20,000 bases of DNA from an uncultured virus (IMG/VR IMGVR_UViG_3300034104_004859) (lineage: Duplodnaviria > Heunggongvirae > Uroviricota > Caudoviricetes): IMG/VR virus record IMGVR_UViG_3300034104_004859, one strand, 5' to 3'. This document shows positions 1,281 to 20,000 of this stretch, in pieces. Below the pieces are notes generated by a model. That model was not told the origin of the DNA. It saw nothing but the letters and a program-made list of their open reading frames with translations, and did no database searches. Positions within the stretch are counted from its first letter, which is position 1; every line of letters starts with the position of its first letter. The position numbers and the translations under genes are program-made.

Positions 1281-1300
1281 AACCCTATAAAATTTAAATT

Positions 1301-1477: not shown

Positions 1478-1488
1478 AAAAAACAAAA

Positions 1489-1662: not shown

Positions 1663-1663
1663 A

Positions 1664-2041: not shown

Positions 2042-2046
2042 ATTAT

Positions 2047-2673: not shown

Positions 2674-2679
2674 AATAAT

Positions 2680-2983: not shown

Positions 2984-2996
2984 TTTCGTATATTTG
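2964..2996 (+). promoter_or_regulatory. Bacteroidota-type sigma70 promoter (copy 1 of 9)
   Basis: ATTTGGTAAATAAGAAATAATTTCGTATATTTG: -33 TTTG, 20-nt spacer, -7 TAnnTTTG. Confidence 0.8.
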
Positions 2997-3013
2997 TATA
3001 AATTAAATTAGTT

Positions 3014-3277
3014 ATGAAAACATTTAATGATTTAGAATTTGTACCACATGCTGCCGGAATGGGAGGTGTGATGAGCCGTATCCAATTTGAAAACGGATAT
3101 GGTGCTAGTGTAGTTAAGACCGATTATACCTATGGAGGTGATAAAGGTTTGTATGAATTAGCAGTATTGGATAGTGATGGTAACTTAACATACGCTACAT
3201 CTGTTACCGATGATGTGATTGGATATTTAAGACCGGAAGATGTAACTGATGTATTGGTTAAAATTCAACAACTATAA
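3014..3277 (+). CDS. Conserved phage hypothetical protein
   Basis: 87 aa; FENGYGASVV...GLYELAVL motif typical of a small phage protein family; directly downstream of promoter. Confidence 0.8.
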   Translation: MKTFNDLEFVPHAAGMGGVMSRIQFENGYGASVVKTDYTYGGDKGLYELAVLDSDGNLTYATSVTDDVIGYLRPEDVTDVLVKIQQL

Positions 3278-3278
3278 T

Positions 3279-3671
3279 ATGATAGCTAATATACTAAGAG
3301 GTACAAAGAGAAATCCATATTCATCTTCTAAAGTAAGAAAGATGCGTAGTGATAGAATGTTGACTAAAGCTAAGAAGGATGGAGTTAGTAATGACCAAGT
3401 CCAACATTATTTAGGTAAGTTACAAGCTGCCGGACATATGAGATTGAGTGGTATGAGTTCATTTGATACTAAAATAGATGCCGATGTATTTAGTGATGGT
3501 AAGGCTATAAAAGCTACTACTATTAAATTTGATACAATACTTGAGAAGGGAATGGGTGAGAGACCGCATATGACTGGTTATTTGACATCGGCTAGTGATA
3601 ATGATAAACAATATAAATTAAAGGGTTGGTTTAATGAGGATGGAACATTCCGAATTGAACTTGTAAACTAA
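3279..3671 (+). CDS. Hypothetical protein (start moved from 3249 to ATG 3279)
   Basis: In-frame ATG 1 nt after the upstream stop (MIANILRG...); C-terminal RPHMTG...YKLKGW beta-rich segment. Confidence 0.7.
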   Translation: MIANILRGTKRNPYSSSKVRKMRSDRMLTKAKKDGVSNDQVQHYLGKLQAAGHMRLSGMSSFDTKIDADVFSDGKAIKATTIKFDTILEKGMGERPHMTGYLTSASDNDKQYKLKGWFNEDGTFRIELVN

Positions 3672-3676
3672 TAGCA

Positions 3677-4168
3677 ATGGGATATAATAAATTCAGATGG
3701 TGGACTAAGGGTAGACCTAATAACCCACTTAAAGCTGACGCTCCGTTATTATTGAAAATCCGAAATGGTGACTTTGATTATTCGTATATGTTTAATGAGG
3801 CTATTGGTATGAGAGAAACGGCTAAACAGGCATACGAACAAACATACAAAAACTATGGTGGCACGGATGAAAAGAATCGGCAAGAAGCGGCATTAGAAGC
3901 TGGTAGGATGAAAAGGGTTAAGGCTATTAAATTGGAGTTAGAAGCAAACAGGGAAGAGCAAATGACCCTATGGAAACTACAAATGGAACTAAAGAAAGAG
4001 TTTGGTAAGGACTTGTGGGAGAAAGCTATGGAGAGACAAAGAGGTAAGGGTACATTGGAGGACTTGTATATGTGGTATAAGAAACAAGTTAAGCAAGGTA
4101 CTACCAAATCGGAAACTGATATTCAATTAAAAAGAACGAATACTTTAGGACTGGAATATTTATTCTAA
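3677..4168 (+). CDS. Hypothetical protein
   Basis: 163 aa ORF, helical and charged, operon-packed. Confidence 0.75.
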   Translation: MGYNKFRWWTKGRPNNPLKADAPLLLKIRNGDFDYSYMFNEAIGMRETAKQAYEQTYKNYGGTDEKNRQEAALEAGRMKRVKAIKLELEANREEQMTLWKLQMELKKEFGKDLWEKAMERQRGKGTLEDLYMWYKKQVKQGTTKSETDIQLKRTNTLGLEYLF

Positions 4169-4177
4169 ACATAGAAC

Positions 4178-4372
4178 ATGGAAAATTTAATAAAATTAGA
4201 ATCTATTAATGTATGGGCTGGTCCTTTGGGTGTAATGCCTTCGGATGAAAACAACCTACCAATAATGGAGGAAAGTAGAAGCTGGGGAAGTTTAGAAGCT
4301 GAATGGTTTCAAAACTTATCCGTAGAAGATAAAGAATTAGTAAACGAAATTATAAACAAAAAAAATAACTAA
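4178..4372 (+). CDS. Hypothetical protein
   Basis: 64 aa ORF, operon-packed. Confidence 0.65.
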   Translation: MENLIKLESINVWAGPLGVMPSDENNLPIMEESRSWGSLEAEWFQNLSVEDKELVNEIINKKNN

Positions 4373-4377
4373 TAGTT

Positions 4378-4656
4378 ATGGAAATCGTAAAGAGCAGATT
4401 TGGAGTAGACCGTTCAATTGAAAGAATCAATTTGAACAAAGTAAGAGTATTAGGTGAATCACAATTCATCCGTAAATCAACTAACAAACAAGGTGATATC
4501 ACTATGTTTGATTTTGAAGGAGGTCCTTGTTATTCATTGGGCGGTAAATTCTTCTTTGAGAAAATGAATTGGAGAATCAACTACATTGAGCCAATGGAAA
4601 GTGGTTACAAAGACCTTTATGAGGTGAACCTACACATTGAACCAATTTGGAGATAA
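4378..4656 (+). CDS. Hypothetical protein
   Basis: 92 aa ORF with FDFEGGP motif; operon-packed. Confidence 0.75.
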   Translation: MEIVKSRFGVDRSIERINLNKVRVLGESQFIRKSTNKQGDITMFDFEGGPCYSLGGKFFFEKMNWRINYIEPMESGYKDLYEVNLHIEPIWR

Positions 4657-4847
4657 TGACATTTGAAGAATTGCAAAGACAAGAAGTTGGGAGATTAAAC
4701 AACGCTTTGATTTCTCAATCACTTCAGCCGCAAGATAGAAAACTACTTAACCAAAAGATGTTCAATCCTAAAACAGGTGAACTACAACTATTTGTTGATA
4801 ATGGTAAAGGTGGTGTAAAGATGGCGGCGGTGAATATCTTTGAATAG
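4656..4847 (+). CDS. Hypothetical protein (start likely ATG 4656, TAATG overlap)
   Basis: In-frame ATG overlapping the upstream TAA; MTFEELQRQEVGRL... Confidence 0.65.
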   Translation: MTFEELQRQEVGRLNNALISQSLQPQDRKLLNQKMFNPKTGELQLFVDNGKGGVKMAAVNIFE

Positions 4848-4907
4848 AACGAACCCCTTTGGGGAGAGTCGTTAGGTAAAAATTTTTGATAGTGAATATT
4901 TATTGGT

Positions 4908-5000
4908 ATGAAAATACTAATAATCAAAATACAAGCTATCATCCTAGCTATCGGAGTTGGGATATACGAATATTACAAAGGTGGAAACAAACCATTTTAA
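4908..5000 (+). CDS. 30-aa single-TM micropeptide (not in ORF track)
   Basis: MKILIIKIQAIILAIGVGIYEYYKGGNKPF; preceded by ATATTTAT-N4; ends 13 nt before iscU. Confidence 0.5.
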   Translation: MKILIIKIQAIILAIGVGIYEYYKGGNKPF

Positions 5001-5013
5001 AAATAAATAAATT

Positions 5014-5424
5014 ATGGCATATAGTGATAAAGTTTTAGACCATTACCAAAACCCAAAGAATGTAGGTACGTTGGATAAAAGTAAATCTAATGTAGGTACT
5101 GGATTGGTAGGAGCACCTGAATGTGGGGATGTTATGAGATTACAAATTGAAGTAGTGGATAACATTATAGTTGATGCAAAATTCAAAACCTTCGGATGTG
5201 GTTCGGCAATCGCATCATCTTCGGTAGCAACTGAATGGTTGAAAGGTAAGAGTTTGGATGAGGCAATGACGATTGATAATATGGATTTGGTTGAGGAACT
5301 AAATCTACCTCCTGTAAAAATTCATTGTTCGGTTTTAGCAGAAGATGCAATCAAATCAGCTATCAATGATTACCGTGTAAAGAACGGATTAGAACCAATT
5401 GTGTTTGAAGATTCGCATATATAA
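5014..5424 (+). CDS. iscU: Fe-S cluster scaffold IscU
   Basis: YSDKVLDHYQNPKNVG, GAPECGDVM, FKTFGCGSAIASSS, LPPVKIHC (HscA-binding motif); three conserved Cys. Confidence 0.96.
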   Translation: MAYSDKVLDHYQNPKNVGTLDKSKSNVGTGLVGAPECGDVMRLQIEVVDNIIVDAKFKTFGCGSAIASSSVATEWLKGKSLDEAMTIDNMDLVEELNLPPVKIHCSVLAEDAIKSAINDYRVKNGLEPIVFEDSHI

Positions 5425-5434
5425 AAAATAAATT

Positions 5435-5743
5435 ATGAGCTATATTATTGGTAAGAGTTGTGTTGATTGTATGGATACTGCGTGTGCTAGTGTATGCCCG
5501 GTAGATTGTATTCACGGACCTATTAATGTTGATGGTTCAGGTTCGGAAATAGAGAAGGATGGTAGAGAAGCATTTCCCGGTGGGCAGATGTATATCAATC
5601 CTGATGTATGTATTAATTGTGGTGCATGTGAGCCTGAATGTCCTGTTTCTGCAATTTACGAAGATGAGGATTTGGCTATCAAAGCTGGTGATGAAATATC
5701 GGTACATAAGAACTACGAATTCTTTGGATTAAAATACGCATAA
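5435..5743 (+). CDS. Dicluster (7Fe/8Fe, FdxA-like) ferredoxin
   Basis: CVDCMDTACASVCPVDCI and CINCGACEPECPV Cys motifs, with a ~20-aa insertion between them. Confidence 0.9.
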   Translation: MSYIIGKSCVDCMDTACASVCPVDCIHGPINVDGSGSEIEKDGREAFPGGQMYINPDVCINCGACEPECPVSAIYEDEDLAIKAGDEISVHKNYEFFGLKYA

Positions 5744-5934
5744 TGATAATAATAGATGTAACAAAATTCAGCTCTATTGAACAGGCTCTAAAGGTGTATA
5801 AGAACAAACACAATAAGATAGGAACTGTTAGAGAGTTAAGGGATAGACAAGTATTCGTTAAACCATCGGTGAAACGTAGAGAGGAAGTTCGTAAGGCAGT
5901 GTATATGGAAAAAAAGTTTAACAACAATAATTAA
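5743..5934 (+). CDS. rpsU: Ribosomal protein bS21 (phage-encoded)
   Basis: 63 aa; IEQALKVYKNK...GTVRELRDRQVFVKPSVKRR...KAVY matches bS21, Bacteroidota-like. Confidence 0.9.
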   Translation: MIIIDVTKFSSIEQALKVYKNKHNKIGTVRELRDRQVFVKPSVKRREEVRKAVYMEKKFNNNN

Positions 5935-5938
5935 AGAT

Positions 5939-6238
5939 ATGAAAGAGTGGATATCAAAGTATCAAAAAGCAATCGTAGGAACGGGCGCTGTATCGGTGTT
6001 AATCCTATGTTACTTTCAACAAAAAGAATTAAGTAAATTACGAAGTGAGCAGATTAAAGTATATAACATTCCGAATAATGTAGATTCGTTAATGAATATA
6101 GCGGATAGTTTACATGATGAGTTATTCATGTCTAAAGTACAAAATGGAAAATACGAATTGAGTTTAGAACATTTATACGAAATTAATCCTAAAGCTGGAA
6201 AGGAGTTTACGGAGTTTATGGAAAATGAAACCGAATAA
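5939..6238 (+). CDS. Membrane-anchored hypothetical protein
   Basis: 99 aa; N-terminal hydrophobic [16 protein letters not shown] followed by a helical region. Confidence 0.7.
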
Positions 6239-6240
6239 CT

Positions 6241-6570
6241 ATGGTAACCTTAGAACCTAAAGCATTAGAGCATGTGATTGAGTTAATGAAGGAAGGTGGC
6301 TTAACGCCGGATACTCATAACTTAAGAGTTGGTATCAAAGGTGGTGGGTGTAGTGGGTTATCTTATACAATGGATTTTGATGATAAGATAGAAGCTACGG
6401 ATGAAGTAGTACAAGCGGATGGATTGAAAGTAGTAATAGATAGAAAGAGTTTACTATACCTGTATGGTACTCAATTAACATATTCAGATGGATTAAATGG
6501 TAAAGGATTTCAATGGGAGAATCCAAACGCATCCCGAACTTGTGGATGTGGTGAAAGTTTTTCTTTATGA
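6241..6570 (+). CDS. iscA: A-type Fe-S carrier (IscA/SufA/ErpA, HesB family)
   Basis: [15 protein letters not shown] and [14 protein letters not shown] motifs. Confidence 0.93.
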
Positions 6571-6743
6571 TAAAATGGATTCCTAAAATATTAGCTTATA
6601 TAGTTATGATGCCTATTTTAATTATTGGTATTATAGTAGGTATTATATGGAATATAGTTTTGATTGGAGATTATATATTCGGAGATATTCGTAGAAAGGG
6701 TAAAAAAGAGATACAACAAATCAATAGAGAACAACATAAATAA
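6567..6743 (+). CDS. Small membrane protein (58 aa, not in ORF track)
   Basis: ATGA overlap with iscA stop; [47 protein letters not shown]... Confidence 0.6.
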
Positions 6744-6762
6744 AAATCTTGCATGCCATGCG

Positions 6763-6799
6763 AAACTCCTTAATAATATCCAAAAATTAAGGAGTTTTT
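6763..6799 (+). terminator. Probable intrinsic terminator ending the Fe-S/bS21 operon
   Basis: AAACTCCTTAAT...ATTAAGGAGTTT 12-bp stem running into a short T tract, immediately before the next promoter. Confidence 0.65.
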
Positions 6800-6800
6800 A

Positions 6801-6833
6801 ATTTGGTAGAATGAAGAATAATTCGTATCTTTA
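6801..6833 (+). promoter_or_regulatory. Bacteroidota-type promoter (copy 2)
   Basis: ATTTGGTAGAATGAAGAATAATTCGTATCTTTA. Confidence 0.8.
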
Positions 6834-6848
6834 CATAAATTAAGTTAT

Positions 6849-7022
6849 ATGCCGCTTAAAAAAGTAATGAAAGGTTTGGAAATATCCTTACAAGCCGAAA
6901 AAGAAATCCATCCAAAAACTAAATTAGGTGTTTGGTTTCATATTTGGAAACTACACTCTATTCAATCACGCATAGATAGTATAAAAAAAGAACTACTATA
7001 TAGAAAAACAAAAACAAAATGA
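6849..7022 (+). CDS. Small basic hypothetical protein (57 aa, not in ORF track)
   Basis: MPLKKVMKGLEISLQAEKEIHPKTKLGVWFHIWKLHSIQSRIDSIKKELLYRKTKTK; ATGA overlap with the TerC gene. Confidence 0.6.
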   Translation: MPLKKVMKGLEISLQAEKEIHPKTKLGVWFHIWKLHSIQSRIDSIKKELLYRKTKTK

Positions 7023-7672
7023 CAGAAGTATTAATTTTCCTAAACATTATGATACTAGAAATAGTATTGAGTATTGATAACGCAGCAGTATTAGCAGCGA
7101 TGGTAAAAGAACTACCAAAAGAACAACAAAAGAAAGCCCTAACCTATGGTATAGCAGGGGCATATGTATTTAGAGGATTGGCATTGGCGTTCGCATCCAT
7201 TCTTATCAAATTAGTATGGTTGAAAGTAGCAGGTGGATTGTATCTTATGTATTTAGCATATAAAGCCTTATCTACAAAAGTTGAAGAAGGTGGTGAGAGT
7301 AAGATGAGTATTAAGATACCATTTCTATCAGCACTTTGGTCTACCATCGTAGCAATTGAGATGATGGATTTGATATTCAGTATTGATAATGTATTTGCCG
7401 CAGTGGCATTTACTCCTAACTTATGGTTGATATGTGGTGGGGTATTCATTGGTATCCTTGCTATGAGATTTGCAACAACAAAGTTTGTGAAAGTCTTAGA
7501 GAAGAATCCTATATTGGAGAGAGTAGCATATTGGGTAATTGGGGCATTGGGATTAAAGTTAGTATCATCGTATTGGTTACATGATTTGAATACGGAATCA
7601 ATTGATGCAGTATTCTCAATCCTAACTTTATTAGCATTTATAATTCCTTTAATAATAAAAACAAAAAAATAA
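7019..7672 (+). CDS. terC: TerC-family integral membrane protein
   Basis: LEIVLSIDNAAV and DLIFSIDNV acidic motifs, GIAGAYVFRG, GILAMRF; about 7 TM segments. Confidence 0.9.
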   Translation: MTEVLIFLNIMILEIVLSIDNAAVLAAMVKELPKEQQKKALTYGIAGAYVFRGLALAFASILIKLVWLKVAGGLYLMYLAYKALSTKVEEGGESKMSIKIPFLSALWSTIVAIEMMDLIFSIDNVFAAVAFTPNLWLICGGVFIGILAMRFATTKFVKVLEKNPILERVAYWVIGALGLKLVSSYWLHDLNTESIDAVFSILTLLAFIIPLIIKTKK

Positions 7673-8928
7673 TGGCAGTACCAAAGATACCTAGAAGATT
7701 GACAGAACCGGAGTTGGAAGATATATTATCGGTAGAGGAATTGGATATGATTCCAGCTGAAGTCCGAATGGCTATTAGTGAATCAATAAAATCATCAGAA
7801 GGATATGGCGATGGTAGTAGTACAACAACTGGACAATCATATAAACCAATTGATTATGATGATTTCCCAATTGGTATGTATATGATTAATAAGACAGGTA
7901 GGAGTTCATCGGCATACTTTAGAATATCGGATGAGTTTCAGGTTAAGCAAGATGATGCATTGGCATTAGTAGAGAAGTTAGGATTCGTTGAAATATTTAA
8001 CAAATCTCTATTCATGCAATCAGGTCACTTTGAAAATAAAATCTATGAGAAAGTATTTGATGATGGTATCGTACTTCTAATGGTAGATAGTATAGCTAAG
8101 AAATGGGCTACATCGGTTTCTAAATCATATAGACAGGATAGAGGTATTAACATTTCATTATGTTCTAACTCATCACCTAAATATTTTAGTGAGATAACAA
8201 ATCAGTTTACTCCACTAGCTAAAAGACGTAGAGAGAAAGAGAATAACATTGCCTTAGTAATACAAACAAATAGAGGTTATGATACAACTTCATTTGAGTT
8301 ACCAAAGCAGAAATTAGATATTGAGTTGGGATATGGTAAATCGTTTAAACCAATTCACGAAAAGATTATACATAAGTTGAATGAACGAAAGAGTAAAGGA
8401 TTAGTTCTATTGCATGGTACGCCTGGTACTGGAAAGACTCACTACTTAAAGTATTTAGCAAGTAAGATTAAGAATAAGAGAGTACTATTCATTCCTCCGT
8501 TCTTAGCAGACTTCATCACATCGCCTGAAATGACACCATTCCTAATTCAAAACGCAGGTTCGGTACTATTCATTGAAGATGCGGAGAAGGTAATTACGGA
8601 TAGAAACACTGGTGGTGGTAATGGCGTATCAAACATACTTAACATTACGGATGGTATCTTAAGTGATATCCTTAACATTCAGATTGTGGCAACATTCAAT
8701 ATGGATAAAAAGAAAATTGATGAGGCATTACTTCGTAAAGGTAGATTGATTGCAGAACATAAGTTTGATGCACTACCAACAGAAGATTCACAAGCCCTAA
8801 TAGACCATTTAGGGTTTGATTATAAAACGGATAAACCAATGACACTAACTGAAATATACAACTTAAGTGAGGTTGAATATAAGAGTGAAGATAAAGGTAG
8901 AGCAACAATAGGATTTAATAGATATTAA
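7672..8928 (+). CDS. AAA+ ATPase with N-terminal domain of unknown function
   Basis: GLVLLHGTPGTGKT, LFIEDAE, ILNITDG, ATFN, IDEALLRKGRL; ends in IGF. Confidence 0.88.
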   Translation: MAVPKIPRRLTEPELEDILSVEELDMIPAEVRMAISESIKSSEGYGDGSSTTTGQSYKPIDYDDFPIGMYMINKTGRSSSAYFRISDEFQVKQDDALALVEKLGFVEIFNKSLFMQSGHFENKIYEKVFDDGIVLLMVDSIAKKWATSVSKSYRQDRGINISLCSNSSPKYFSEITNQFTPLAKRRREKENNIALVIQTNRGYDTTSFELPKQKLDIELGYGKSFKPIHEKIIHKLNERKSKGLVLLHGTPGTGKTHYLKYLASKIKNKRVLFIPPFLADFITSPEMTPFLIQNAGSVLFIEDAEKVITDRNTGGGNGVSNILNITDGILSDILNIQIVATFNMDKKKIDEALLRKGRLIAEHKFDALPTEDSQALIDHLGFDYKTDKPMTLTEIYNLSEVEYKSEDKGRATIGFNRY

Positions 8929-8929
8929 T

Positions 8930-9688
8930 ATGGCATACTTAGATAAATCAAAATTAATAATTTTAGTTACAGGAACTACAATAGAACCTTGGGACCAAAA
9001 TTGGAAAGAATGTGAAAATACTTGGATTCCTGAATTGAGAAAACTTGGATATAATGTTATGATTGCGATAGGTAATCCTGATTTGGATACTGATTATTCT
9101 ATTAATGGTAATATAATTACTTTTAAAGCAGATGATACCAAAACGGGATTGTTTGATAAATCAATTAGATTGCCAATCAAATGGATATTACAACAAACCG
9201 ATTATGAATATTATTTTAGAATAGATTCCGATTCATTTGTTGCACCAATACGATTTGATAGAATGATGATAGAAAATTTTTATGAAATACCAAATCTTCA
9301 TTATATGGGATGCTCTCATCCAGCTAATTTTATCAATCCACATTTACATAAAAGATTTTTTGTTTGTAAAGAAGGTACAATTGCAAGTGGGTGTGGTTAT
9401 ATGATATCAAAAGAAGCTATGATAATAGCGGATGCTAAAATGAGAATAGATGCGGAAGTTGATTATCAAATTGATGATTGGGTTTTGGGTAGAGCAATGT
9501 GGGAAAACGGAGTACAACTTTTACATGATTCCAGAATATTATTTGAATCAAAGTATAATAAATTGGCAGCCGATCCTGATAACATAGGTTTGCCTGATAT
9601 AGATAATCCACAATCACATTTAGCACTTCAACATTATATGAATGGACATATGGAAGAAGCAATGATAAGTTTAGGATATAGAAAATAG
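8930..9688 (+). CDS. GT-A glycosyltransferase, GT31/Fringe (beta-1,3-galactosyltransferase)-like
   Basis: YEYYFRIDSDSFV (DxD motif), SGCGYMIS, IDDWVLG, C-terminal His. Confidence 0.75.
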   Translation: MAYLDKSKLIILVTGTTIEPWDQNWKECENTWIPELRKLGYNVMIAIGNPDLDTDYSINGNIITFKADDTKTGLFDKSIRLPIKWILQQTDYEYYFRIDSDSFVAPIRFDRMMIENFYEIPNLHYMGCSHPANFINPHLHKRFFVCKEGTIASGCGYMISKEAMIIADAKMRIDAEVDYQIDDWVLGRAMWENGVQLLHDSRILFESKYNKLAADPDNIGLPDIDNPQSHLALQHYMNGHMEEAMISLGYRK

Positions 9689-9693
9689 AAGTT

Positions 9694-10053
9694 ATGAAGT
9701 TTAGAACAAGAAAATTAATTAAGCCCGAAGATTTAAATGCTAGGGGTACATTATTCGGCGGACAGATGTTAAAGTGGATAGATGAAGAAGCATCTATATT
9801 TACAATCTGTCAATTGAAAGAACGTAGTATTGTTACAAAGGCAATGAGTGAAATCAACTTTGTAGCATCTGCAAAAACAGGTGATATCATTGAGATAGGC
9901 TGTGAGTTAGTACAATTTGGTACAACATCAGTTACTATAAGTTGTGAGGTACGGAACAAAGATAGTAAGCAAACCATTATCCGAATTGATAAAATAGTTT
10001 TTGTTACAGTAGATGAAAACGGAAGACCAAAACCACATGGAATTGTTAAATAA
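9694..10053 (+). CDS. Hotdog-fold acyl-CoA thioesterase (YciA-like)
   Basis: PEDLNARGTLFGGQMLKWIDE, GTTSVTI, FVTVDENGRP. Confidence 0.9.
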   Translation: MKFRTRKLIKPEDLNARGTLFGGQMLKWIDEEASIFTICQLKERSIVTKAMSEINFVASAKTGDIIEIGCELVQFGTTSVTISCEVRNKDSKQTIIRIDKIVFVTVDENGRPKPHGIVK

Positions 10054-10631
10054 TGAAAGAGTACATTTGTGCATACTGTGGTAAAGATACATCTGACGTA
10101 GATTATGATTATTTAGTTGGATTCAATCACTTATCATGTGTACTTATGGACCAACTTTCAGATGCTCTTGATAAAGAAAAAAATATGAATAAGAAAAAAC
10201 CCATAGAGATATCAAATTGGAATAAGTTAAGTGATAGTAAGTTTGATGTGATGGGAGCTAGTTTTTTTATATCCGATACTAGCCATGCTAGTAATTTATA
10301 TACGGCTTGGGTACACCCATTGGATAATAGTGAGGCTTTTGCTAGAGTTACTTTATTTTCGGATAATATGGATATGCAAGTTAAGGTACTTCCGCCGGTT
10401 AAATATGATAGTATGATACCATATGAGTTGACTAGTACTATAACAAAGAATCACATATCCAATCCATCTATCTTTATACAAACTATTGCGGAGGCACTAT
10501 TAAGTGACCCAACAACAAGAGATATTTTATCGTATGTTAGTAGAGAGCAAGATAATGTTAGACGATTTAAAGGTAGGGGATATTCATCTTCATCTGGTTT
10601 AAGTGGAAGTAGTGGAAATACAATTTGGTAA
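10053..10631 (+). CDS. Hypothetical protein with N-terminal Zn-finger-like motif
   Basis: CAYCGK...HLSC at the N-terminus; Ser/Gly-rich tail; TAATG overlap. Confidence 0.7.
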   Translation: MKEYICAYCGKDTSDVDYDYLVGFNHLSCVLMDQLSDALDKEKNMNKKKPIEISNWNKLSDSKFDVMGASFFISDTSHASNLYTAWVHPLDNSEAFARVTLFSDNMDMQVKVLPPVKYDSMIPYELTSTITKNHISNPSIFIQTIAEALLSDPTTRDILSYVSREQDNVRRFKGRGYSSSSGLSGSSGNTIW

Positions 10632-10655
10632 TATCGGGTATTTTTCGTATCTTTA
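10623..10655 (+). promoter_or_regulatory. Bacteroidota-type promoter (copy 3), probably giving a leaderless mRNA
   Basis: ATTTGGTAATATCGGGTATTTTTCGTATCTTTA followed by CAAT-ATG(10660). Confidence 0.75.
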
Positions 10656-10659
10656 CAAT

Positions 10660-10998
10660 ATGAATTTATTAATAGGGTTTCTTTATGGGTTAGTAGCACA
10701 AATATTAACCTTTTTACAATTACAAGGTAGTATCAAATATGGTTGGTATGAAAAATATCCAATCATAATAATTTTAGCATCTATACCATCGGGTTGGTTA
10801 TTCCTAAAATCAGTACAATATTTTGTTACTGCATTTGGAGGTGAAATATGGCCATCTCGTTTGATAGGATATGGAATTGGAGTTGTGATATTTACTTTGA
10901 TGAGCTACTATTTATTTAAAGAACCACTTAACGCAAAAACATTAGTTTGTTTGGGATTGAGTGTTGCTATAATATTGATACAAATACTTTGGAAATAA
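10660..10998 (+). CDS. 4-TM small membrane protein, DMT/SMR-like (start moved from 10603)
   Basis: MNLLIGFLYGLVAQILTF...; four hydrophobic helices and an FKEPLNAKTLVCLGL DMT-like C-terminal hairpin; the longer start overlaps the upstream gene and promoter. Confidence 0.75.
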   Translation: MNLLIGFLYGLVAQILTFLQLQGSIKYGWYEKYPIIIILASIPSGWLFLKSVQYFVTAFGGEIWPSRLIGYGIGVVIFTLMSYYLFKEPLNAKTLVCLGLSVAIILIQILWK

Positions 10999-11012
10999 TA
11001 AAAAGAAATAAT

Positions 11013-11870
11013 ATGAATATAGTAATTACAGGTGGTGCTGGTTTTGTTGGAACTAACTTAGCAAAGAGACTAGTAGAAGATGGTCATAAGGTAATCGTAT
11101 TAGATGATTATTCAGTAGGTACAGTAGAAAATCAAATAGAAGGTGTTAAGTATATACCAATGAATATAGAGCAGATAAACTATATGAGTGGTGCGGAAGT
11201 TGATATATGTTTTCATCTTGCAGCACTTAGTAGAATCCAACCATCATTTGAAAACCCATCGGAGTTCTTTAGAGTTAATACATCTGGAACTGAAGCTGTA
11301 TGTGAGTGGGCTAGAAAGGGTAATGTGAAGGTAGTATATGCTGGTTCATCTTCACAATGGCATGACCCGTTTCAATCACCATACGCAATGTATAAGAAGT
11401 TGGGTGAGGATGTGTGTAAGATGTATAAAAAAGTATTTGGTACTAACATTGAGATTGCCAGATTTTATAATGTATATGGTCCACATGAAATTACCGAAGG
11501 TATGTGGGCGGCTGTGATTGGTAAATGGAGAGGACAAGTTGAAAAGAATCACCCAATTACAATTGTAGGTGATGGTGAACAAAGGAGAGATTTTACGCAT
11601 GTTGATGATATTGTTGATGGTTTGATTAAGATTGCATTTAGTGATGAAACGCACGAAGATGCTTGGGAGTTAGGTACTGGATTTAACTATTCTCTAAATG
11701 AAGTGGCTGATATGTTTATCAAAAAGTTCAATTGTGTGAAGGTGTATATGACTGATGAGAGGGGTAATTATAGAGAAACAAAGAGAGAAAATAATGATGC
11801 TCTTAATAGACTTGATTGGAGACCAAAAGATGTATTAAGAGAGTATATTGAAAATTTAGAAAAACAATAA
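11013..11870 (+). CDS. NAD-dependent nucleotide-sugar epimerase/dehydratase (extended SDR); start moved from 10947
   Basis: MNIVITGGAGFVG, FHLAA, YAGSSS, SPYAMYK (YxxxK), RFYNVYGP, GDGEQRRDFTHVDD. Confidence 0.93.
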   Translation: MNIVITGGAGFVGTNLAKRLVEDGHKVIVLDDYSVGTVENQIEGVKYIPMNIEQINYMSGAEVDICFHLAALSRIQPSFENPSEFFRVNTSGTEAVCEWARKGNVKVVYAGSSSQWHDPFQSPYAMYKKLGEDVCKMYKKVFGTNIEIARFYNVYGPHEITEGMWAAVIGKWRGQVEKNHPITIVGDGEQRRDFTHVDDIVDGLIKIAFSDETHEDAWELGTGFNYSLNEVADMFIKKFNCVKVYMTDERGNYRETKRENNDALNRLDWRPKDVLREYIENLEKQ

Positions 11871-11872
11871 TT

Positions 11873-12031
11873 ATGAGTGGCTTAACAATTTTCGGAATAG
11901 TTTTTGTGTTATTATGGGGGTGGGTTATCTATTGTGGGTGGAGTGCACCTATGATGGAAGAACAACCTGATGGTAGTTGGAAAACTATAAGACCGGAAAA
12001 GAAATTATCAGACCTCTTTAAGAAAAAATAA
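11873..12031 (+). CDS. Small membrane protein (52 aa, not in ORF track)
   Basis: MSGLTIFGIVFVLLWGWVIYCGWSAPMMEEQPDGSWKTIRPEKKLSDLFKKK; fills the intergenic gap exactly. Confidence 0.65.
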   Translation: MSGLTIFGIVFVLLWGWVIYCGWSAPMMEEQPDGSWKTIRPEKKLSDLFKKK

Positions 12032-12034
12032 GTT

Positions 12035-12607
12035 ATGAAAGTAGAATTTAAAGACTCATTCTTTGAGAGCTTAGAGAAATTGGTATGGTATGATAGCAAC
12101 CTATGGAAAGTATGGGCAGCTATAAGATATGATATTCCCCTATTCTTTAAGAATGTATGGAGGTTCAGAAAGGAGTTATATAATCACCAATGGTGGGATT
12201 ATCGTTTCCATTTAGAAATGATGTATCGCTCTTTGAGTATTATGGAGAAGGGAATGAGTGATAAAGGAATGGAAGTTGCTGAGACCCGAAATGTAAAGTT
12301 AATAATGATGCGTAGAGCATTAGAGTTACTTAAACATAAGTTGGATGATGATTATATCCAAAGAGCTGAATTAGAATTGGGTGAAATCAATCATAGTGAA
12401 TTTGAGTTTGAGAAAACCGAAGATGGGAATTATACATTGATAGATAACGATACAGAAGAAGATAAGAAGCACGCTAGGAAAGTATATAAGAGAGCAAGAG
12501 TTATAGAAGACAAAGAGTGGAAGGAATTATGGGACATCTTCAAAGGGAAGAAATTTACTACTTGGGAGAAATACGATGGTAGTGATTTGAGAGGATGGTG
12601 GGACTAG
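12035..12607 (+). CDS. Conserved phage hypothetical protein
   Basis: 190 aa; WRFRKELYNHQWWDY and terminal RGWWD motif. Confidence 0.8.
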   Translation: MKVEFKDSFFESLEKLVWYDSNLWKVWAAIRYDIPLFFKNVWRFRKELYNHQWWDYRFHLEMMYRSLSIMEKGMSDKGMEVAETRNVKLIMMRRALELLKHKLDDDYIQRAELELGEINHSEFEFEKTEDGNYTLIDNDTEEDKKHARKVYKRARVIEDKEWKELWDIFKGKKFTTWEKYDGSDLRGWWD

Positions 12608-12643
12608 AAGTCCAACAAAGGGGTAAACAAACAAAAACAATAT

Positions 12644-12841
12644 ATGGTGGGAATTATTATTTTTGTTGTTGCTTCAACAGCGTTACTAAGCTGGGCATGG
12701 GTTAGAGGAATTGACTACATGAACAAAAAACATCCTGAATACAAAGGAGAAGATTTGTTCGGAGAAGATGAATGTGTAACTAAAACCGCAGGTAGAGATG
12801 GTTGGGATGACAACATTATTCATGGAGAAGGAGATTTTTAG
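12644..12841 (+). CDS. Small membrane-anchored phage protein
   Basis: N-terminal TM followed by WVRGIDYMNKKHPEYKGEDLF. Confidence 0.7.
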   Translation: MVGIIIFVVASTALLSWAWVRGIDYMNKKHPEYKGEDLFGEDECVTKTAGRDGWDDNIIHGEGDF

Positions 12842-12921
12842 TACTAACTAAATTTATTCCAAAAAAAGCAATATTAACTATTGCCAGGCGAAGTATTATC
12901 TAAAAATTAAATTATAAAAAT

Positions 12922-13494
12922 ATGTTACCATTAAAAGAAGCCATAGCTGAGAAGCACTCTTTGGCAGAGAAAATGACATTCAATCAAAGAATGTTCAACG
13001 GAGAATTATCTAACGAAGAATACGTTTTGTATCTTTCGCAACAATTAGCAATATTTGATGCAATTGAAAGGAACGAATTACCCCATTCATCATTGAATCG
13101 CTCAAAAAGAGTATTTCAAGATATTAAAGAATTAATGAAATTGGAAAATGGAGAATCGTTAGATATTAAGCCATTAAGTTCAACTAACGAATACCGAAAA
13201 TACCTCAATACACTAACAAAAGAAGAACAACTTCCGCATGTATATTTAAACTACTTAGCATTGATGTTTGGTGGACAGATGATGAAAGCTAAAACACCGG
13301 GTAGTGGTAAGATGTATGAGTTTGATGGTGATATGAGAGAAATTGCTGAAAGCATTAGAGCTATCCAAAAAGATGAGTGGGCTGATGAAGCAAACAAAGC
13401 ATTAGATTATAACATAAACATATTAGATGAATTACAAAGAGTATCTGAATCAGCTAGCAACGAAGTTGAAGTTGATGGTGGAGAAAGCGCCTAA
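12922..13494 (+). CDS. Heme oxygenase (biliverdin-producing family)
   Basis: LKEAIAEKHSLAE (proximal His12), YVLYL, HVYLNYLALMFGGQ distal helix, YEF, DEANKALDYN. Confidence 0.85.
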   Translation: MLPLKEAIAEKHSLAEKMTFNQRMFNGELSNEEYVLYLSQQLAIFDAIERNELPHSSLNRSKRVFQDIKELMKLENGESLDIKPLSSTNEYRKYLNTLTKEEQLPHVYLNYLALMFGGQMMKAKTPGSGKMYEFDGDMREIAESIRAIQKDEWADEANKALDYNINILDELQRVSESASNEVEVDGGESA

Positions 13495-14065
13495 TTGCCA
13501 ACCACTACATACTGAGGATTATGGATGGGTCAATCACCGATACGAAGCTAAACATTTCCGTTTAGCGCACGTTGAAAGATATGCCGATGGTAAGATTGAG
13601 GTATTACACTTCACTACGTTTCCGCATAAGTGGTCTCCCGAACCGATATTTGGTTTTGATGTAATATGTACTGGTAAGATTGTTACCGGCGCCTATATGG
13701 ATTTAAGCCCCATTATAGACACCTATCCTTTTGATGAAGGAATGGATATTGGGGGTAGAAAACCGATTCCTGAGTGGGCTACTGTGTTCTCTGACCGATT
13801 TATAATGATTAAACCCGAATCGGATGAGGAATTTATCCGTTTTTGTGACTGGGTGGTGGACAAATATGATTGGTATCTAAATTCATTATTAAAGTTAGAG
13901 CATAAAACCGATAACATTAAAGGTGTAATAGAAAAACAAAATACTTATTGTCAGGTACAAGCATCTAATCCAAGAACCTATTCGGCATTAAAAGCTTTGA
14001 TAGGTGAAACGGAAGCTAGATACTTTATGGAAAACATTTTATTCCCAAAGATAGATGAAGCCTAG
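13427..14065 (+). CDS. Ferredoxin-dependent bilin reductase, PcyA/PcyX-like
   Basis: FRLAHVE, VLHFTTFP, PIFGFD, MDLSP, PEWATVFS, QNTYCQVQASNPRT, FMENILFP all align with PcyA motifs. Confidence 0.88.
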   Translation: MNYKEYLNQLATKLKLMVEKAPNCQPLHTEDYGWVNHRYEAKHFRLAHVERYADGKIEVLHFTTFPHKWSPEPIFGFDVICTGKIVTGAYMDLSPIIDTYPFDEGMDIGGRKPIPEWATVFSDRFIMIKPESDEEFIRFCDWVVDKYDWYLNSLLKLEHKTDNIKGVIEKQNTYCQVQASNPRTYSALKALIGETEARYFMENILFPKIDEA

Positions 14066-15747: not shown

Positions 15748-15990
15748 ATGGAAGTAAATGAGAAAGTTTTAAAATTAAAGGTTAGGGAACAAAAGTTAAA
15801 AGAAGAATTAGCTTATTGGGAAAGTGAGTTTCAACCATCCGGAAATATGGGTAAATGGGGTAGACAAGTTAAGGTAGATAAGATAAAAAAGGAATTGGAC
15901 GAAATTCAAAGTGATATTGGATTCCACGATTCTTTATATTTATCTAATGAAATATATAAACAATGGAAAGACGAAAATCTTACAAATTAG
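15748..15990 (+). CDS. Coiled-coil hypothetical protein
   Basis: 80 aa helical hairpin; preceded by AAGGGAGGT. Confidence 0.7.
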   Translation: MEVNEKVLKLKVREQKLKEELAYWESEFQPSGNMGKWGRQVKVDKIKKELDEIQSDIGFHDSLYLSNEIYKQWKDENLTN

Positions 15991-16655
15991 ATGAAGCCTC
16001 TTTAGGTAGAGTGTATCAGCATGTAAACTCAGACAAGAATGTTAAGTCTTGGGGTATGGTTACTGCTTTTAGAAGTTTGAATACGCCTAAAAAAAATAGA
16101 CAACTTAATAAAGAATTAGAAGCTCAAATTAGAGGTAAGAAATTGGGATTCTTTAAAGTTGAAGGATATTGGAGAGAATGCCAAGATTCTGATTTAGCTT
16201 ACGCAGATTGTCCAAAGGATAAATTAAAGGATAGTATTGAAACTACATTTTTTATTCCTAATATTTCAATAAAAGATATTCATAAATTTGGAAAACAATA
16301 TAATCAAGACTCTGTATTGTATGGTGGTCCTGAAACTAAAGGTAACGCTCATTTGATATGGAGAAATGGTTCGCAAGATAATGTTGGTAAATTTCATCCA
16401 AATATTATTCAACAAGCTTATTCTAAAATGAAAGGTGGTAAAACTTTTGGATTTAATGATACTCCTACAAAAAAGGCAGAACCATCAACTACTAAATTAA
16501 CAGGAAACTTACCAAAAGATATTGCGGATAAGACTGTTAAGAATCCACAAACTGGTAGAGATATCAAAGTAACATCAGCTTTAAAGTATGATGATAAAAG
16601 CCCTGTTTATAAGGCAGCAACATCTTTAGTTGCTATGATGAATAAGAAGAAATAA
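15963..16655 (+). CDS. Conserved phage protein with C-terminal NPxTGR motif
   Basis: EASLGRV...GMVTAFR...VEGYWRE...YNQDSVL core plus tail KNPQTGRDIKVTSAL. Confidence 0.75.
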   Translation: MERRKSYKLDEASLGRVYQHVNSDKNVKSWGMVTAFRSLNTPKKNRQLNKELEAQIRGKKLGFFKVEGYWRECQDSDLAYADCPKDKLKDSIETTFFIPNISIKDIHKFGKQYNQDSVLYGGPETKGNAHLIWRNGSQDNVGKFHPNIIQQAYSKMKGGKTFGFNDTPTKKAEPSTTKLTGNLPKDIADKTVKNPQTGRDIKVTSALKYDDKSPVYKAATSLVAMMNKKK

Positions 16656-17954: not shown

Positions 17955-18026
17955 CGTGGGGTAGAGCAGTGGTAGCTCGCTAGGCTCATAACCTAGAGGC
18001 CGGTGGTTCGAACCCATCCCCCGCAA
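17955..18026 (+). tRNA. Initiator-type tRNA-Met (CAT)
   Basis: Cloverleaf CGTGGGG/CCCCGCA with C1:A72 mismatch, A11:U24, anticodon arm CTAGG-CTCATAA-CCTAG, GGTTCGAACC; CCA not encoded. Confidence 0.93.
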
Positions 18027-18035
18027 CAAAAAAAG

Positions 18036-18400: not shown

Positions 18401-19226
18401 TGGCCGCCTATGGTCATTAAATAAACTACGAAAGTAGGATAAAGTGAAACATTTGGTTAAGTGTTTTGCGGTTCACAACCCTGTAAGGTTATGAGCTTGA
18501 GTAGGCAAGTGAGATATCATTGAGGCTTTGTATGTGAGGGTAACACTGTAGCAGAAGAGTTTTGATGACTGAGCAATTGTAGATTGTTCAGTTGAGTTGG
18601 GAACAACGATAAGAATAACTCATAGGATTATTGTAAGATATATGAACTTAATCCCTTCATACTATTGCGTGATTCAATATTAGAGTGGTCTTAACATCAA
18701 GCTATCCGAAAGGACGTAAGATAAGACTGTGTACGCGTGGTGGCGTTACTATCCTTGTATAGAGTTTACCAAAACCTATATTTGAAGATGACTCAAAATA
18801 TGGTGATAGGGATATCACATCTGGTAGTATAGTATTCTGTTCTTCAAAAGGGGACAGAGCTGGTGATGAACCACTACCGGAATCCATCTACGAACCAAAC
18901 CCTTTATGCTAAATATACAGGATATATAAACATAAAAGCAAAAGTGTTCATCAGTTATGACTGAAAGATGTCTACACAGTATTGAGTGTTCAATGCCATT
19001 GTTACTCGCAAGGTAATGGTGATTCTTTCGAAAGGTTTCTAATCCCGCAAGGATTAATCAGGCCGATAGGTTTGAAGAAAATAAGTAAAGAGAGAGTAGG
19101 TTATGACTTTATGAGTGGTTGGCCGTAAGCAACCGACATTGATTTGGTACTTCTCAAAAGGAAGTGGAAACGAAAGGAACTAATAATCTTTCAAAAGCTG
19201 AATCACCCATTGGAGTATTCTCATCC
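18401..19226 (+). ncRNA. Large structured ncRNA (~830 nt), GOLLD-like; boundaries approximate
   Basis: No credible ORF and higher GC. Many hairpins: CTAC-GAAA-GTAG 18426-37, TCC-GAAA-GGA 18705-14, two TCAAAAG-loop stems at 18835-59 and 19149-65, TAATCC-CGCAA-GGATTA. The 3' TATTCTC can pair with GAGAGTA near 19092. Size and phage tRNA-cluster context fit GOLLD. Confidence 0.65.
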
Positions 19227-19234
19227 ATTTATAA

Positions 19235-19304
19235 GCGGTTTTAGTGTAACAGCAGCACATCGGACATTCCAGTTCGAAGGAGGGGGGCAGCACCTTTCAC
19301 CGCT
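19235..19304 (+). pseudogene. Degenerate tRNA-Gly-like element
   Basis: GCGGT/ACCGC acceptor with T discriminator, GTG(T)...GCAC D arm, TCGGA/TTCGA stem around an 8-nt loop CATTCCAG; T-loop lacks TTCG. Confidence 0.55.
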
Positions 19305-19357
19305 CGATACAACTGAAAAGTTGTTTTCATATCTTAATTTTTATTACAACTTGAAAA

Positions 19358-19381
19358 GGGGAATGTAGCAATATATTCCCC
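19358..19381 (+). other. GNRA-capped hairpin (processing site or weak terminator)
   Basis: GGGGAATGTA-GCAA-TATATTCCCC, no good U tract. Confidence 0.5.
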
Positions 19382-19449
19382 GATTTAGGCTTTAAGATAC
19401 TAACAACAATTCGGAAAAATAAAATTGATATACTTATTAATAGATAAAA

Positions 19450-19572
19450 ATGAAAAACCTTAACTTACATACAGAGTGTTTACTACCGATGTTTTCAAAA
19501 ACATGGGCAGGGAGAAGTGTGTATAATCAAATTAGTGATTGTAAGTTAGAGGTAAGTGCACAGGAAGTGTAA
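19450..19572 (+). CDS. Putative attenuator leader peptide (40 aa, not in ORF track)
   Basis: MKNLNLHTECLLPMFSKTWAGRSVYNQISDCKLEVSAQEV; A-rich start context; contains the antiterminator strand at 19544-19553. Confidence 0.65.
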   Translation: MKNLNLHTECLLPMFSKTWAGRSVYNQISDCKLEVSAQEV

Positions 19573-19598
19573 GATGTAAAAGTAAAAATTACAAATAG

Positions 19599-19640
19599 AA
19601 AGACCTCTAACTGATAAAAAAGTTAGAGGTTTTTTGTTTT
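19599..19640 (+). terminator. Intrinsic terminator (attenuator) abutting tRNA-Asn
   Basis: ACCTCTAACT-GATAAAAA-AGTTAGAGGT 10-bp stem followed by TTTTTGTTTT. Confidence 0.85.
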
Positions 19641-19712
19641 GGGGATATAGCTCAGCGGTAGAGCGGGTCACTGTTAATGACTAGGTCATAGGTTCGAATC
19701 CTTTTATCCCCG
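19641..19712 (+). tRNA. tRNA-Asn (GTT)
   Basis: GGGGATA/TATCCCC acceptor, G73, GGTCA-CTGTTAA-TGACT, GGTTCGAATCC. Confidence 0.93.
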
Positions 19713-19719
19713 CTGATAG

Positions 19720-19732
19720 GTTCTTTGACATT
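19720..19732 (+). promoter_or_regulatory. boxA-like antitermination element
   Basis: GTTCTTTGACATT between tRNA-Asn and tRNA-Val. Confidence 0.5.
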
Positions 19733-19745
19733 GTGGAAAAAAGTT

Positions 19746-19820
19746 GGAAGTTTAGCTCAGTTGGTTTAGAGCATCACGTTTACACCGTGAGGGTCATAGG
19801 TTCGAATCCTGTAACTTCCA
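19746..19820 (+). tRNA. tRNA-Val (TAC)
   Basis: GGAAGTT/AACTTCC acceptor, A73, TCACG-TTTACAC-CGTGA, GGTTCGAATCC. Confidence 0.95.
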
Positions 19821-19900
19821 CAAACGGTTACCAATCCGGAACACGCCTGGAAGTTTAGTGTATTAGCACACCGGGATATGGTGATAACAAAATTGGAAAT

Positions 19901-19982
19901 GGAGGTATCGCATAGTGGCAATTGCGGAGCACTGTAAATGCTCTCTCATTAGAGTTCGGTGGTTCGAGTCCATCTACCTTCA
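19901..19982 (+). tRNA. tRNA-Tyr (GTA)
   Basis: GGAGGTA/TACCTTC acceptor, GAGCA-CTGTAAA-TGCTC, long variable arm, GGTTCGAGTCC. Confidence 0.95.
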
Positions 19983-20000
19983 CAAACCCTAATAGTTTTC

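Follow-up and report, generated by a model that had tools for sequence, protein, structure and literature searches.

A candidate ribosome-mediated attenuator with an amino-acid-complete leader peptide at the head of a phage tRNA operon

How does a large phage decide when to transcribe its own tRNA genes, and does the short open reading frame (ORF) directly in front of them take part in that decision? The question is raised by a locus at the end of a 20,000-nucleotide stretch of DNA from an uncultured virus (IMG/VR record IMGVR_UViG_3300034104_004859), which in its full length is called the window here and whose source is a large uncultured freshwater phage. To our knowledge, the regulation of phage tRNA genes is largely unknown, and leader-peptide attenuation has so far been a textbook device of amino-acid operons only. 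A preliminary description, made from the letters of the window alone, had proposed that the ORF is the leader of a translation-sensing attenuator. After comparison with its relatives, we consider it probable, though well short of certain, that the element is a ribosome-mediated transcription attenuator of the leader-peptide (trp-style) type, which acts as a sensor for all amino acids and heads the tRNA operon of the phage. This reading is carried by a conserved ORF, selection on the completeness of its amino acids, three covarying RNA helices and an invariable linkage to tRNA arrays, each of which is established at the level of sequence comparison. The ORF and its presumed target are located as follows:

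19450..19572, plus strand: leader ORF, 40 codons and a TAA stop, ATG start, all 20 amino acids in codons 1-30 (ORF call, composition count)
19641..19983, plus strand: first tRNA genes of the array, Asn(GTT) 19641-19713, Val(TAC) 19746-19821 and Tyr(GTA) 19901-19983, where the window ends (ARAGORN)

The ORF call and a count of its residues bore out the initial observation that the first 30 codons hold all 20 amino acid types, and the full set is already present within residues 7-30 (24 residues). None of the other six-frame ORFs of at least 30 amino acids (aa) in the window, which number 158 together with this one, has more than 18 types in its first 30 codons. All 20 types were found in 7 of 9,491 stop-free windows of 30 residues, and all 7 lie inside this ORF. 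The preliminary estimate of a chance of about 1e-3 at uniform frequencies was close to the computed value of 1.3e-3 for the first 30 codons; with the amino-acid frequencies of the phage, the exact chance falls to 1.9e-4 for 30 codons and, for a given stretch of 24 residues, to 2.5e-6. As the original statistic was post hoc and concerned one window, it would by itself be compatible with a chance ORF and a chance repeat beside an ordinary terminator. Apart from the low probability within the window, the features recur in 49 distinct elements and covary there, so that we give this explanation virtually no credence and regard it as refuted by the family data.

These data were obtained from uncultured viral and metagenome contigs, in which the element was found at 75 loci, 49 of them distinct; some contigs among the 75 were fetched more than once. 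With the terminator sequence as the sole query, 7 loci were obtained from viral contigs, each with a homologous ORF ahead of tRNA-Asn or tRNA-Tyr. A pattern made from the first codons of the ORF yielded 19 matches, of which 14 were true homologues, while profile-guided scans contributed 15 further viral and 38 metagenome loci. The pattern TATACTTATTA...ATGAAAA had more than 118 unrelated matches in viral contigs and was too unspecific to be used. When protein databases were searched with a profile, 157 relatives were found at E <= 0.01, all of them unnamed, and there were no precomputed Pfam domains among the 120 database relatives listed. Four leader peptides gave no match in Pfam and a single stray one in PHROG (E 0.22). 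GenBank phages contained no nucleotide match to the leader, and tblastn with a 53-aa family member gave no hit at E <= 1 in 50,697 records; judging from these searches, no cultured carrier is known.

The five remaining matches to the N-terminal pattern (L137, L142, L145, L146 and L151) were unrelated and were dropped. Two of them, L137 and L151, which are unrelated viral contigs, have in common a 29-aa ORF that starts with MKTLTNIFDFAFFAAEED and is followed by a terminator and, in L151, by a tRNA-like sequence. This ORF may be another, non-homologous leader before tRNA genes.

Throughout the family the ORF behaves as a coding sequence. Its frame is open in 49 of 49 distinct elements despite a GC content of 33% and heavy divergence. 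It is also intact at all 75 retrieved loci, which had been pre-selected for an intact ORF of 35-75 aa, and at 7/7 loci found by the terminator alone, a set that is independent of the ORF. Indels within it are multiples of three, with the addition of one compensated +1/-1 frameshift: a one-base insertion in codon 3 is offset eight bases later (MKTLTLHT vs MKNFNLHT), which shifts codons 3-5. The first seven nucleotides, ATGAAAA, are invariant in 44/44 elements, and residues M1, K2, H7, W19 and G21 are invariant in alignment A1. The pooled ratio of nonsynonymous to synonymous polymorphism (pN/pS) is 0.57 in the frame of the ORF vs 0.88 and 1.11 in the shifted frames, which indicates that the constraint on the peptide is real but weak, as a leader would show.

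Completeness of the peptide is a property of the family as well. Among 154 distinct peptides of 39-68 aa, 141 contain all 20 types, 12 contain 19 and one, which has a frameshifted tail, contains 17; by chance, completeness would be expected in 0.6% of peptides at 40 aa and in 4.7% at 53 aa. Because the family sequences are related, three controls were run. With sequences filtered to at most 70% identity, 23 of 27 peptides were complete vs 7.0 +/- 2.1 after shuffling within alignment columns, and at most 60% identity left 12 of 15 vs 3.4 +/- 1.5; in both cases 0/2000 shuffles reached the observed number. A tree-aware simulation, which started from a complete root and let the columns evolve independently at parsimony-matched rates, gave 92.6 +/- 27.6 complete tips vs 140/153 observed, a number reached in 1/300 runs and, at 1.5-fold rates, in 0/300. 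The loss of a rare residue from its usual position is also compensated by a copy elsewhere in the peptide. Cysteine occurs at a mean of 1.10 copies per peptide and is spread over 9 columns; peptides without Cys10 have a cysteine elsewhere in 35 of 36 cases, those with Cys10 in 10 of 53 (p 1.7e-14). Intermediates with two cysteines exist, and only 2 of 153 peptides have none. Tyrosine shows the same behaviour (12/13 when the usual residue is absent vs 10/76 when it is present), as does internal methionine (9/11 vs 13/78). As far as a comparison of sequences can tell, the amino-acid completeness of the leader is under selection.

Two related ideas were rejected. An amino acid missing from the leader does not point to a tRNA missing from the array, since leaders without arginine precede arrays with two tRNA-Arg. 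The leader might also sample codons rather than amino acids: the number of distinct codons is 33.2 vs 31.0 expected (higher in 37/45) and rare codons make up 19% vs 10%, but this signal is too weak and is confounded by RNA structure.

The conserved ORF could also encode a trans-acting small protein of 39-53 aa with its own terminator, in which case the role of the RNA structure would lie in the stability of the mRNA or in the control of its translation, and the array would be expressed through leaky read-through. This would explain why blocks of residues persist (the five invariant residues of A1; LGKVDYIS in long forms), and leader peptides with functions in trans, such as peTrpL, are reported. 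We nevertheless consider a small protein quite unlikely. For a functional protein, the constraint implied by a pN/pS of 0.57 is weak, and apart from the stray PHROG hit nothing matched in Pfam or PHROG at E <= 1. The C-terminal half is swapped wholesale between subfamilies while the composition stays complete, the wandering single cysteine and tyrosine fit a composition and not a fold, and the residues at the L-E-D position move with the terminator arm (LED, LRE, LGD, LGF).

This last observation leads to the RNA, in which the attenuator reading requires four segments:

19457..19473, plus strand: segment 1, 5' strand of the anti-antiterminator (codons 3-8), which pairs with 19541-19553 and 19520-19524 in the minimum free energy (MFE) structure of 19445-19645
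19541..19553, plus strand: segment 2, the switch strand (codons 31-35, K-L-E-V), an 11-nt copy of the terminator 3' arm, which pairs with segment 1 or segment 3
19603..19612, plus strand: segment 3, terminator 5' arm ACCTCTAACT, common to antiterminator and terminator (sequence, covariation)
19621..19640, plus strand: segment 4, terminator 3' arm AGTTAGAGGT at 19621-19630 and T tract at 19631-19640 (sequence, terminator scan)

The intrinsic terminator that had been noticed between the ORF and the first tRNA is present, with its T tract extending to 19640 and tRNA-Asn starting at 19641, so that the two adjoin; the terminator scan tool listed the hairpin under the minus strand only. The reported copy of its 3' arm within the ORF (19543-19553) is exact: the window has two occurrences of AAGTTAGAGGT and no more, one at 19543 (inside codons 32-35) and one at 19620.

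Whether these repeats form the suggested, mutually exclusive antiterminator was assessed by covariation and folding in alignment A2, which consists of 44 distinct elements. For the antiterminator (helix 2:3), 97.4% of cells are paired and 4 of 8 pairs are changed on both sides; one of these pairs is A-U in 34 sequences, G-C in 10 and never unpaired. Its covariation score of 0.159 (vs 0.074 in shuffles) was reached in 0/500 shuffles and beats all slid registers, which supports the alternative pairing. The best complement that the ORF offers to the terminator 5' arm has a length of 8-11 bp in 43 of 46 cases. The residues encoded at segment 2 change along with the arm (LED, LEE, LRD/LRE, LGD, LGF, LEV), which is what selection at the RNA level predicts. 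The terminator (helix 3:4) is paired in 97.9% of cells, contains 2 pairs with double changes and has hairpin energies of -12 to -20 kcal/mol across the 44 homologues.

The third helix, 1:2, acts as anti-antiterminator and had not been part of the preliminary description, nor had the RNA fold that spans the ORF or the GOLLD RNA that lies upstream. A duplex of 6-12 bp can be formed in all 44 sequences. When the partners were swapped between sequences, the mean energy changed from -8.36 (native) to -7.38 kcal/mol, and 0/5000 permutations reached the native value; CUUUAAC/GUUAGAG vs CCUUAAC/GUUAGGG are examples of strands that have changed together. Segment 1 pairs with segment 2 and additionally with a conserved GUAUGU in the middle of the ORF. 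In the fragment from the ATG to segment 2, segment 2 pairs with nucleotides 5-20 of the ORF at a mean probability of 0.86. RNAalifold, applied to A2, recovered only the terminator and the invariant ACAUAC:GUAUGU helix and missed the outer 1:2 helix, which is blurred in the alignment because of the frameshift indels; support for 1:2 is thus drawn from the partner swap and the folds of individual sequences. In the full-length MFE structure, 43 of 44 sequences adopt the terminator (together with 1:2) and one adopts the antiterminator. By these models, the architecture is the canonical one of three alternative helices, 1:2, 2:3 and 3:4, formed from four segments.

The ORF as a whole is strongly folded, with z scores of -6.3 in the window and -5.4 in a relative of 53 codons. 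Folding of this strength would also be expected of a non-coding structured RNA, either a 3' extension of GOLLD or a platform for the processing of tRNA precursors, in which the open frame is incidental. The conservation of nucleotides across the codon 3-5 frameshift and an RNA contig that joins the 3' end of GOLLD to the leader speak for such an RNA. It is very unlikely all the same, because the frame is open in every distinct element, indels keep the frame, the single frameshift is compensated, and the frame-specific pN/pS and the completeness statistics have no explanation in terms of RNA alone. Moreover, no Rfam family reaches its threshold on 19228-19645.

A side observation concerns the spacer between the stop codon and the terminator (19573-19602; columns 270-310 of A2). 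Although this spacer is non-coding, its nucleotides are conserved (AAAATGTAAAAATTTTATAACAATATT-like) in many relatives, where it might act as a pause site for polymerase or form the structured loop of the antiterminator.

If the attenuator reading is correct, the position of the ribosome on the leader should matter, and the geometry of the ORF is consistent with this. The core of segment 2 ends 14 nt (30/44) or 17 nt (11/44) before the stop codon, while the residues encoded in between vary (DTDVG, EASGW, DDNWG, VSAQEV). In the model, a ribosome that terminates would, at this spacing of 14-17 nt, have its trailing edge over the G-rich end of segment 2. A ribosome footprint of -12 to +14 nt around the P site was used. 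With it, 2:3 is predicted to form for P-site positions from codon 1 to about N-12 and to disappear as long as segment 2 is under the ribosome; when the last sense codon is reached, 3 of 5 modelled leaders still lack it. In the long forms (29/44), all 20 types are found at codons where a stalled ribosome leaves segment 2 free, and in 22 of these 29 the twentieth type, the Tyr of V-D-Y, lies exactly at the sensing limit.

We infer that termination is regulated in vivo, and the switch would operate with the following polarity. Without a ribosome, or with a ribosome that has run to the stop codon, segment 2 would be held by segment 1 or occluded. With segment 2 unavailable, 3:4 would form and RNA polymerase would stop before the tRNAs. 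A ribosome delayed at any point within the body of the ORF would prevent the closure of 1:2, which encloses a strongly folded structure with almost the whole ORF in it; 2:3 would then form and polymerase would read through into the array. As every amino acid is represented in the ORF, tRNA synthesis would rise whenever any one charged tRNA ran short, and the device would be a general homeostat of decoding capacity. Its natural trigger might be starvation, a codon mismatch with the host or the cleavage of tRNAs. In short, the phage probably makes its own tRNAs when ribosomes read slowly.

The same helices can be read with the opposite polarity, as a check of translation competence: loading or passage of a ribosome opens 1:2 and permits 2:3, untranslated transcripts terminate, and tRNAs are made when translation is active. 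Three points favour this logic: with segment 1 at codons 3-8, 1:2 would be disrupted by every ribosome that initiates; in the footprint model, 2:3 is fully formed with the P site at codon 1 and beyond; and two of five leaders regain 2:3 when a ribosome has arrived at the stop codon. Such a check gives no reason, however, for keeping all 20 amino acids, nor for a stop codon 14-17 nt past segment 2 in 41/44 sequences whose C-terminal residues vary. We think it unlikely.

The association of the element with a tRNA array is strict. A tRNA gene on the same strand starts 63-94 nt past the stop codon in 72/72 assessable loci, and in 68 of them it is tRNA-Asn. There is thus no room for a separate promoter, and since the terminator fills the gap between stop codon and tRNA, polymerase would reach the array only through it. 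In near-identical and related contigs the array continues beyond the part contained in the window, with Phe, Lys, Pro, Ile, Trp, Arg, Cys and more. In two complete relatives, it comprises 24-25 of the 26 tRNAs of the genome and covers all 20 amino acids. Over a length of 4.7 kb, one array contained no plus-strand terminator-like site other than the leader terminator. The preliminary description had named two things to look for in relatives, short ORFs of excess amino-acid diversity upstream of tRNA arrays and covarying terminator and antiterminator arms, and both were found, in the completeness counts and array linkage given above and in helices 2:3 and 3:4. Homologues that lack the ORF or the alternative pairing, which would have spoken against it, did not turn up, also not among the 7 loci detected by the terminator.

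Two further features of the arrays were noted. Between tRNA-Arg and tRNA-Cys of one array (positions 3501-4624 of L209, record G003), there are three ORFs of 111, 87 and 174 aa, which may be co-transcribed with the tRNAs under the same gate, as there is no plus-strand terminator nearby. In the arrays of L130/L140/L155, L150/L156, L165 and L177, ARAGORN called a tRNA-Ser with the anticodon ACT; the anticodon in relatives is GCT. A34 is unusual in a Ser tRNA, and the call may be erroneous or reflect a tRNA with a modified wobble base.

Upstream, the leader is preceded by two further RNA genes and by a short motif:

17955..18027, plus strand: tRNA-Met(CAT), head of the module (ARAGORN; Rfam tRNA 61.8 bits)
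18820..19227, plus strand: GOLLD RNA, conserved 3' domain (Rfam RF02032, 289.8 bits, E 2.7e-82, full model)
19427..19439, plus strand: A/T-rich conserved motif GATATACTTATTA, family consensus TATACTTAT, 14-27 nt before the ATG (string verified)

From the Rfam match to GOLLD (gathering score 150) and the tRNA-Met at 17955 on the same strand, the order of the module on the plus strand is tRNA-Met, GOLLD, leader, tRNA array. The variable 5' domain of GOLLD probably starts soon after tRNA-Met. The leader itself is outside the GOLLD match and is a separate element 222 nt downstream of it. GOLLD was found upstream of the leader on the same strand in 20/20 related loci tested, and tRNA-Met precedes the leader in many related loci, too. 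In phages, GOLLD is described near tRNA islands and downstream of tRNA-Met, with unknown function (bioRxiv 10.1101/2024.12.08.627333, in the portion available), and the tRNA-Met upstream and the tRNA island nearby are seen here as well. The words 'leader' and 'terminator' do not occur in the accessible text of this cryo-EM preprint.

Several observations concern the surroundings of GOLLD. In 7/20 related loci, a phage tmRNA lies just upstream of tRNA-Met and GOLLD (positions 254-624 of L209, record G003; also L155, L156, L157, L162, L165, L166 and L177). The tag peptide of the L209 tmRNA ends in AVAA, and the order there is tmRNA, tRNA-Met, GOLLD, leader, tRNA array; ARAGORN and Rfam found no tmRNA in the window. 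In the spacer between GOLLD and leader (19228-19449), a G-run comes after a T-loop-like GGTTCGAAGG, and there is also a small hairpin with a T-run at 19319-19340. At the equivalent place in several relatives (e.g. L147, L159 and L187), ARAGORN called a tRNA-like gene of undetermined type ('???'). Either a tRNA in decay or a 3' end of GOLLD that resembles a tRNA might account for this feature. In LR745206.1, a 635-kb uncultured phage, GOLLD is present and no tRNA array was found within 2.9 kb downstream.

As to the start of the transcript, a promoter had been suggested at 19430. The string in question, ATACTTAT, is present at 19430-19437, and TATACTTAT occurs with at most one mismatch in 35/49 distinct elements. 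However, a sigma-70 scan called nothing at the 19427-19439 motif, and the 13-mer GATATACTTATTA is not enriched in the window when up to three mismatches are allowed (21 matches vs 37.4 expected). The promoter is thus unsupported, and an RNA contig runs from GOLLD into the leader instead. No Shine-Dalgarno motif was found in any of the 49 elements; 20/25 genes in the window likewise have none and share the A/T-rich start context.

RNA contigs were taken from four metatranscriptomes of lakes and other freshwater sites, which were available as assembled contigs only, with DNA carry-over possible and 3' ends not visible. The depth of GOLLD contigs was 700-13,000 and fell at about 19210-19250. The leader was covered in three of the four runs (X1, X2 and X5) at a depth of 2-43. 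The contig that joins the 3' end of GOLLD to the leader stops at 19597, and in X1 and X5 other contigs bridge the terminator into tRNA-Asn and tRNA-Val. In X5, the depth was 42.8 before the terminator and 4.6 across it. Because contigs neither show RNA ends nor exclude DNA, we take these data as hints: the leader seems to be transcribed, possibly from upstream, and terminated-like and read-through forms may both exist.

A number of results weigh against the attenuator reading or limit it. A transcript that ends at segment 3 prefers 2:3 at equilibrium in the absence of a ribosome (P 0.67-1.0). As 2:3 beats 1:2 at equilibrium before segment 4 is made, the off state would have to be co-transcriptional, that is, kinetic. 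A single ribosome stalled in the middle of the ORF leaves segment 1 uncovered, which means that steric or entropic destabilisation of 1:2, or a queue of ribosomes, would be needed. The renewed formation of 2:3 with a ribosome at the stop codon in two of the five modelled leaders also does not fit. The short forms (15/44, including the window) have one or two types (from among D, E, R, Y, Q and C) that are not represented before the sensing limit. They fall 1-6 codons past it, and 3/15 short forms lack one type entirely. In the window, Asp30 is 2 codons past the modelled limit, which supports the caveat, already raised in the preliminary description, that stalls at codons 28-30 may still cover segment 2. 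On the side of composition, 13/154 peptides are incomplete, a sub-clade with leaders of 42-43 aa is usually without Arg, though its arrays encode two tRNA-Arg, and the tree-aware test, at 1/300, is significant and not overwhelming. A pure composition sensor would not need conserved peptide blocks (W-x-G, LGKVDYIS); RNA pairing accounts for part of their conservation, but not for all of it. Finally, the RNA evidence for termination consists of assembled contigs only.

Taken together, the proposal of an attenuator stood up to the comparative tests, while the promoter and a host among the Bacteroidota, which had also been suggested, found no support; the polarity of the switch and its trigger are still conclusions drawn from sequence and models. 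With regard to the host, two complete relatives with the same element (238 and 274 kb) both have a T4-type major capsid gene, and the window encodes heme oxygenase and an adjacent ferredoxin-dependent bilin reductase (12922-14062). Further auxiliary genes encode GTP cyclohydrolase I (2047-2670), IscU, ferredoxin and IscA (5014-6567), TerC (7019-7669) and SAM lyase (15963-16652). Together they make up a dense block of auxiliary metabolic genes in a T4-like jumbo phage. The gene psbA was found in 0/4 related records, the two complete relatives included, and this check neither supports a cyanophage identity nor speaks against it. The best cultured relative, judged by one AAA protein, is Microcystis phage Mel-JY01 (55% identity); a GOLLD search of its genome gave no match, and control searches likewise gave none. 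The nearest record, G001, ends inside GOLLD, short of the leader.

For the wider group, the balance is even between accepting and rejecting the proposal that a clade of T4-like freshwater jumbo phages has a universal sensor of decoding capacity, which turns on a complete tRNA set when any host tRNA becomes limiting, for example through a tRNA-cleaving defence or host shut-off, and which shares a module with GOLLD and sometimes tmRNA. If this proposal holds, the element would be the first leader-peptide attenuator over tRNA genes and the first whose sensor is compositional completeness instead of a codon run, and regulation that is based on selection for a peptide with every amino acid would be new in principle. 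It would help to explain the independence of large phages from the tRNA pool of the host, also under defences that target tRNAs. The enigmatic GOLLD RNA would obtain its first functional context, in a translation-maintenance module with tmRNA, tRNA-Met, leader and array. Because the element is small and self-contained and has an intrinsic terminator, it is directly testable in vitro, and it could serve as a compact reporter of translation stress.

That the preliminary description knew of no described equivalent agrees with full-text searches of the literature, which among the abstracts covered gave no paper on a leader peptide or attenuator before tRNA genes or on a leader with all amino acids.

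The textbook leader-peptide attenuators are trpL, hisL, leuL and pheL of E. coli and Salmonella, along with the multivalent leaders of thrL and ilvGMEDA. The present element resembles them in its short leader ORF, predicted to be translated, in a four-segment RNA that can form 1:2, 2:3 and 3:4, in an intrinsic terminator directly before the regulated genes and in a stop codon placed so that the terminating ribosome would touch segment 2. Of the features by which attenuators are recognised, a selected short ORF, an adjacent intrinsic terminator, a covarying and mutually exclusive antiterminator and an anti-antiterminator that overlaps the ORF are all present, whereas regulatory codon runs were not found in the leaders, which have all 20 types, mostly once to a few times each. 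Unlike the amino-acid operon leaders, the element thus holds about one of each of the 20 amino acids and no run of cognate codons. In addition, its segment 1 lies at the start of the ORF so that 1:2 encloses the sensor codons, its targets would be tRNAs and not biosynthetic enzymes, and it is encoded by a phage. A second group of stalling leaders responds to antibiotics and precedes ermC/cat-type, vmlR, lmo0919 and msr/mef genes. There, too, a ribosome stalled on a short ORF flips a terminator/antiterminator pair, and the signal is the performance of translation and not a single metabolite. These leaders rely on drug-bound ribosomes and specific peptide motifs and control resistance genes, whereas here the output would be tRNA supply and nothing suggests a drug-dependent arrest motif. 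The T-box riboswitch binds one uncharged tRNA directly and needs no ORF. The mechanism proposed here would share with it the coupling of tRNA charging to terminator read-through before translation-related genes, but the present element is apparently translated and gave no Rfam T-box match, either at the gathering score or, on 19228-19645, at E <= 10. Set beside these systems, the element would extend ribosome-mediated attenuation to a sensor principle and a class of targets that are both new.

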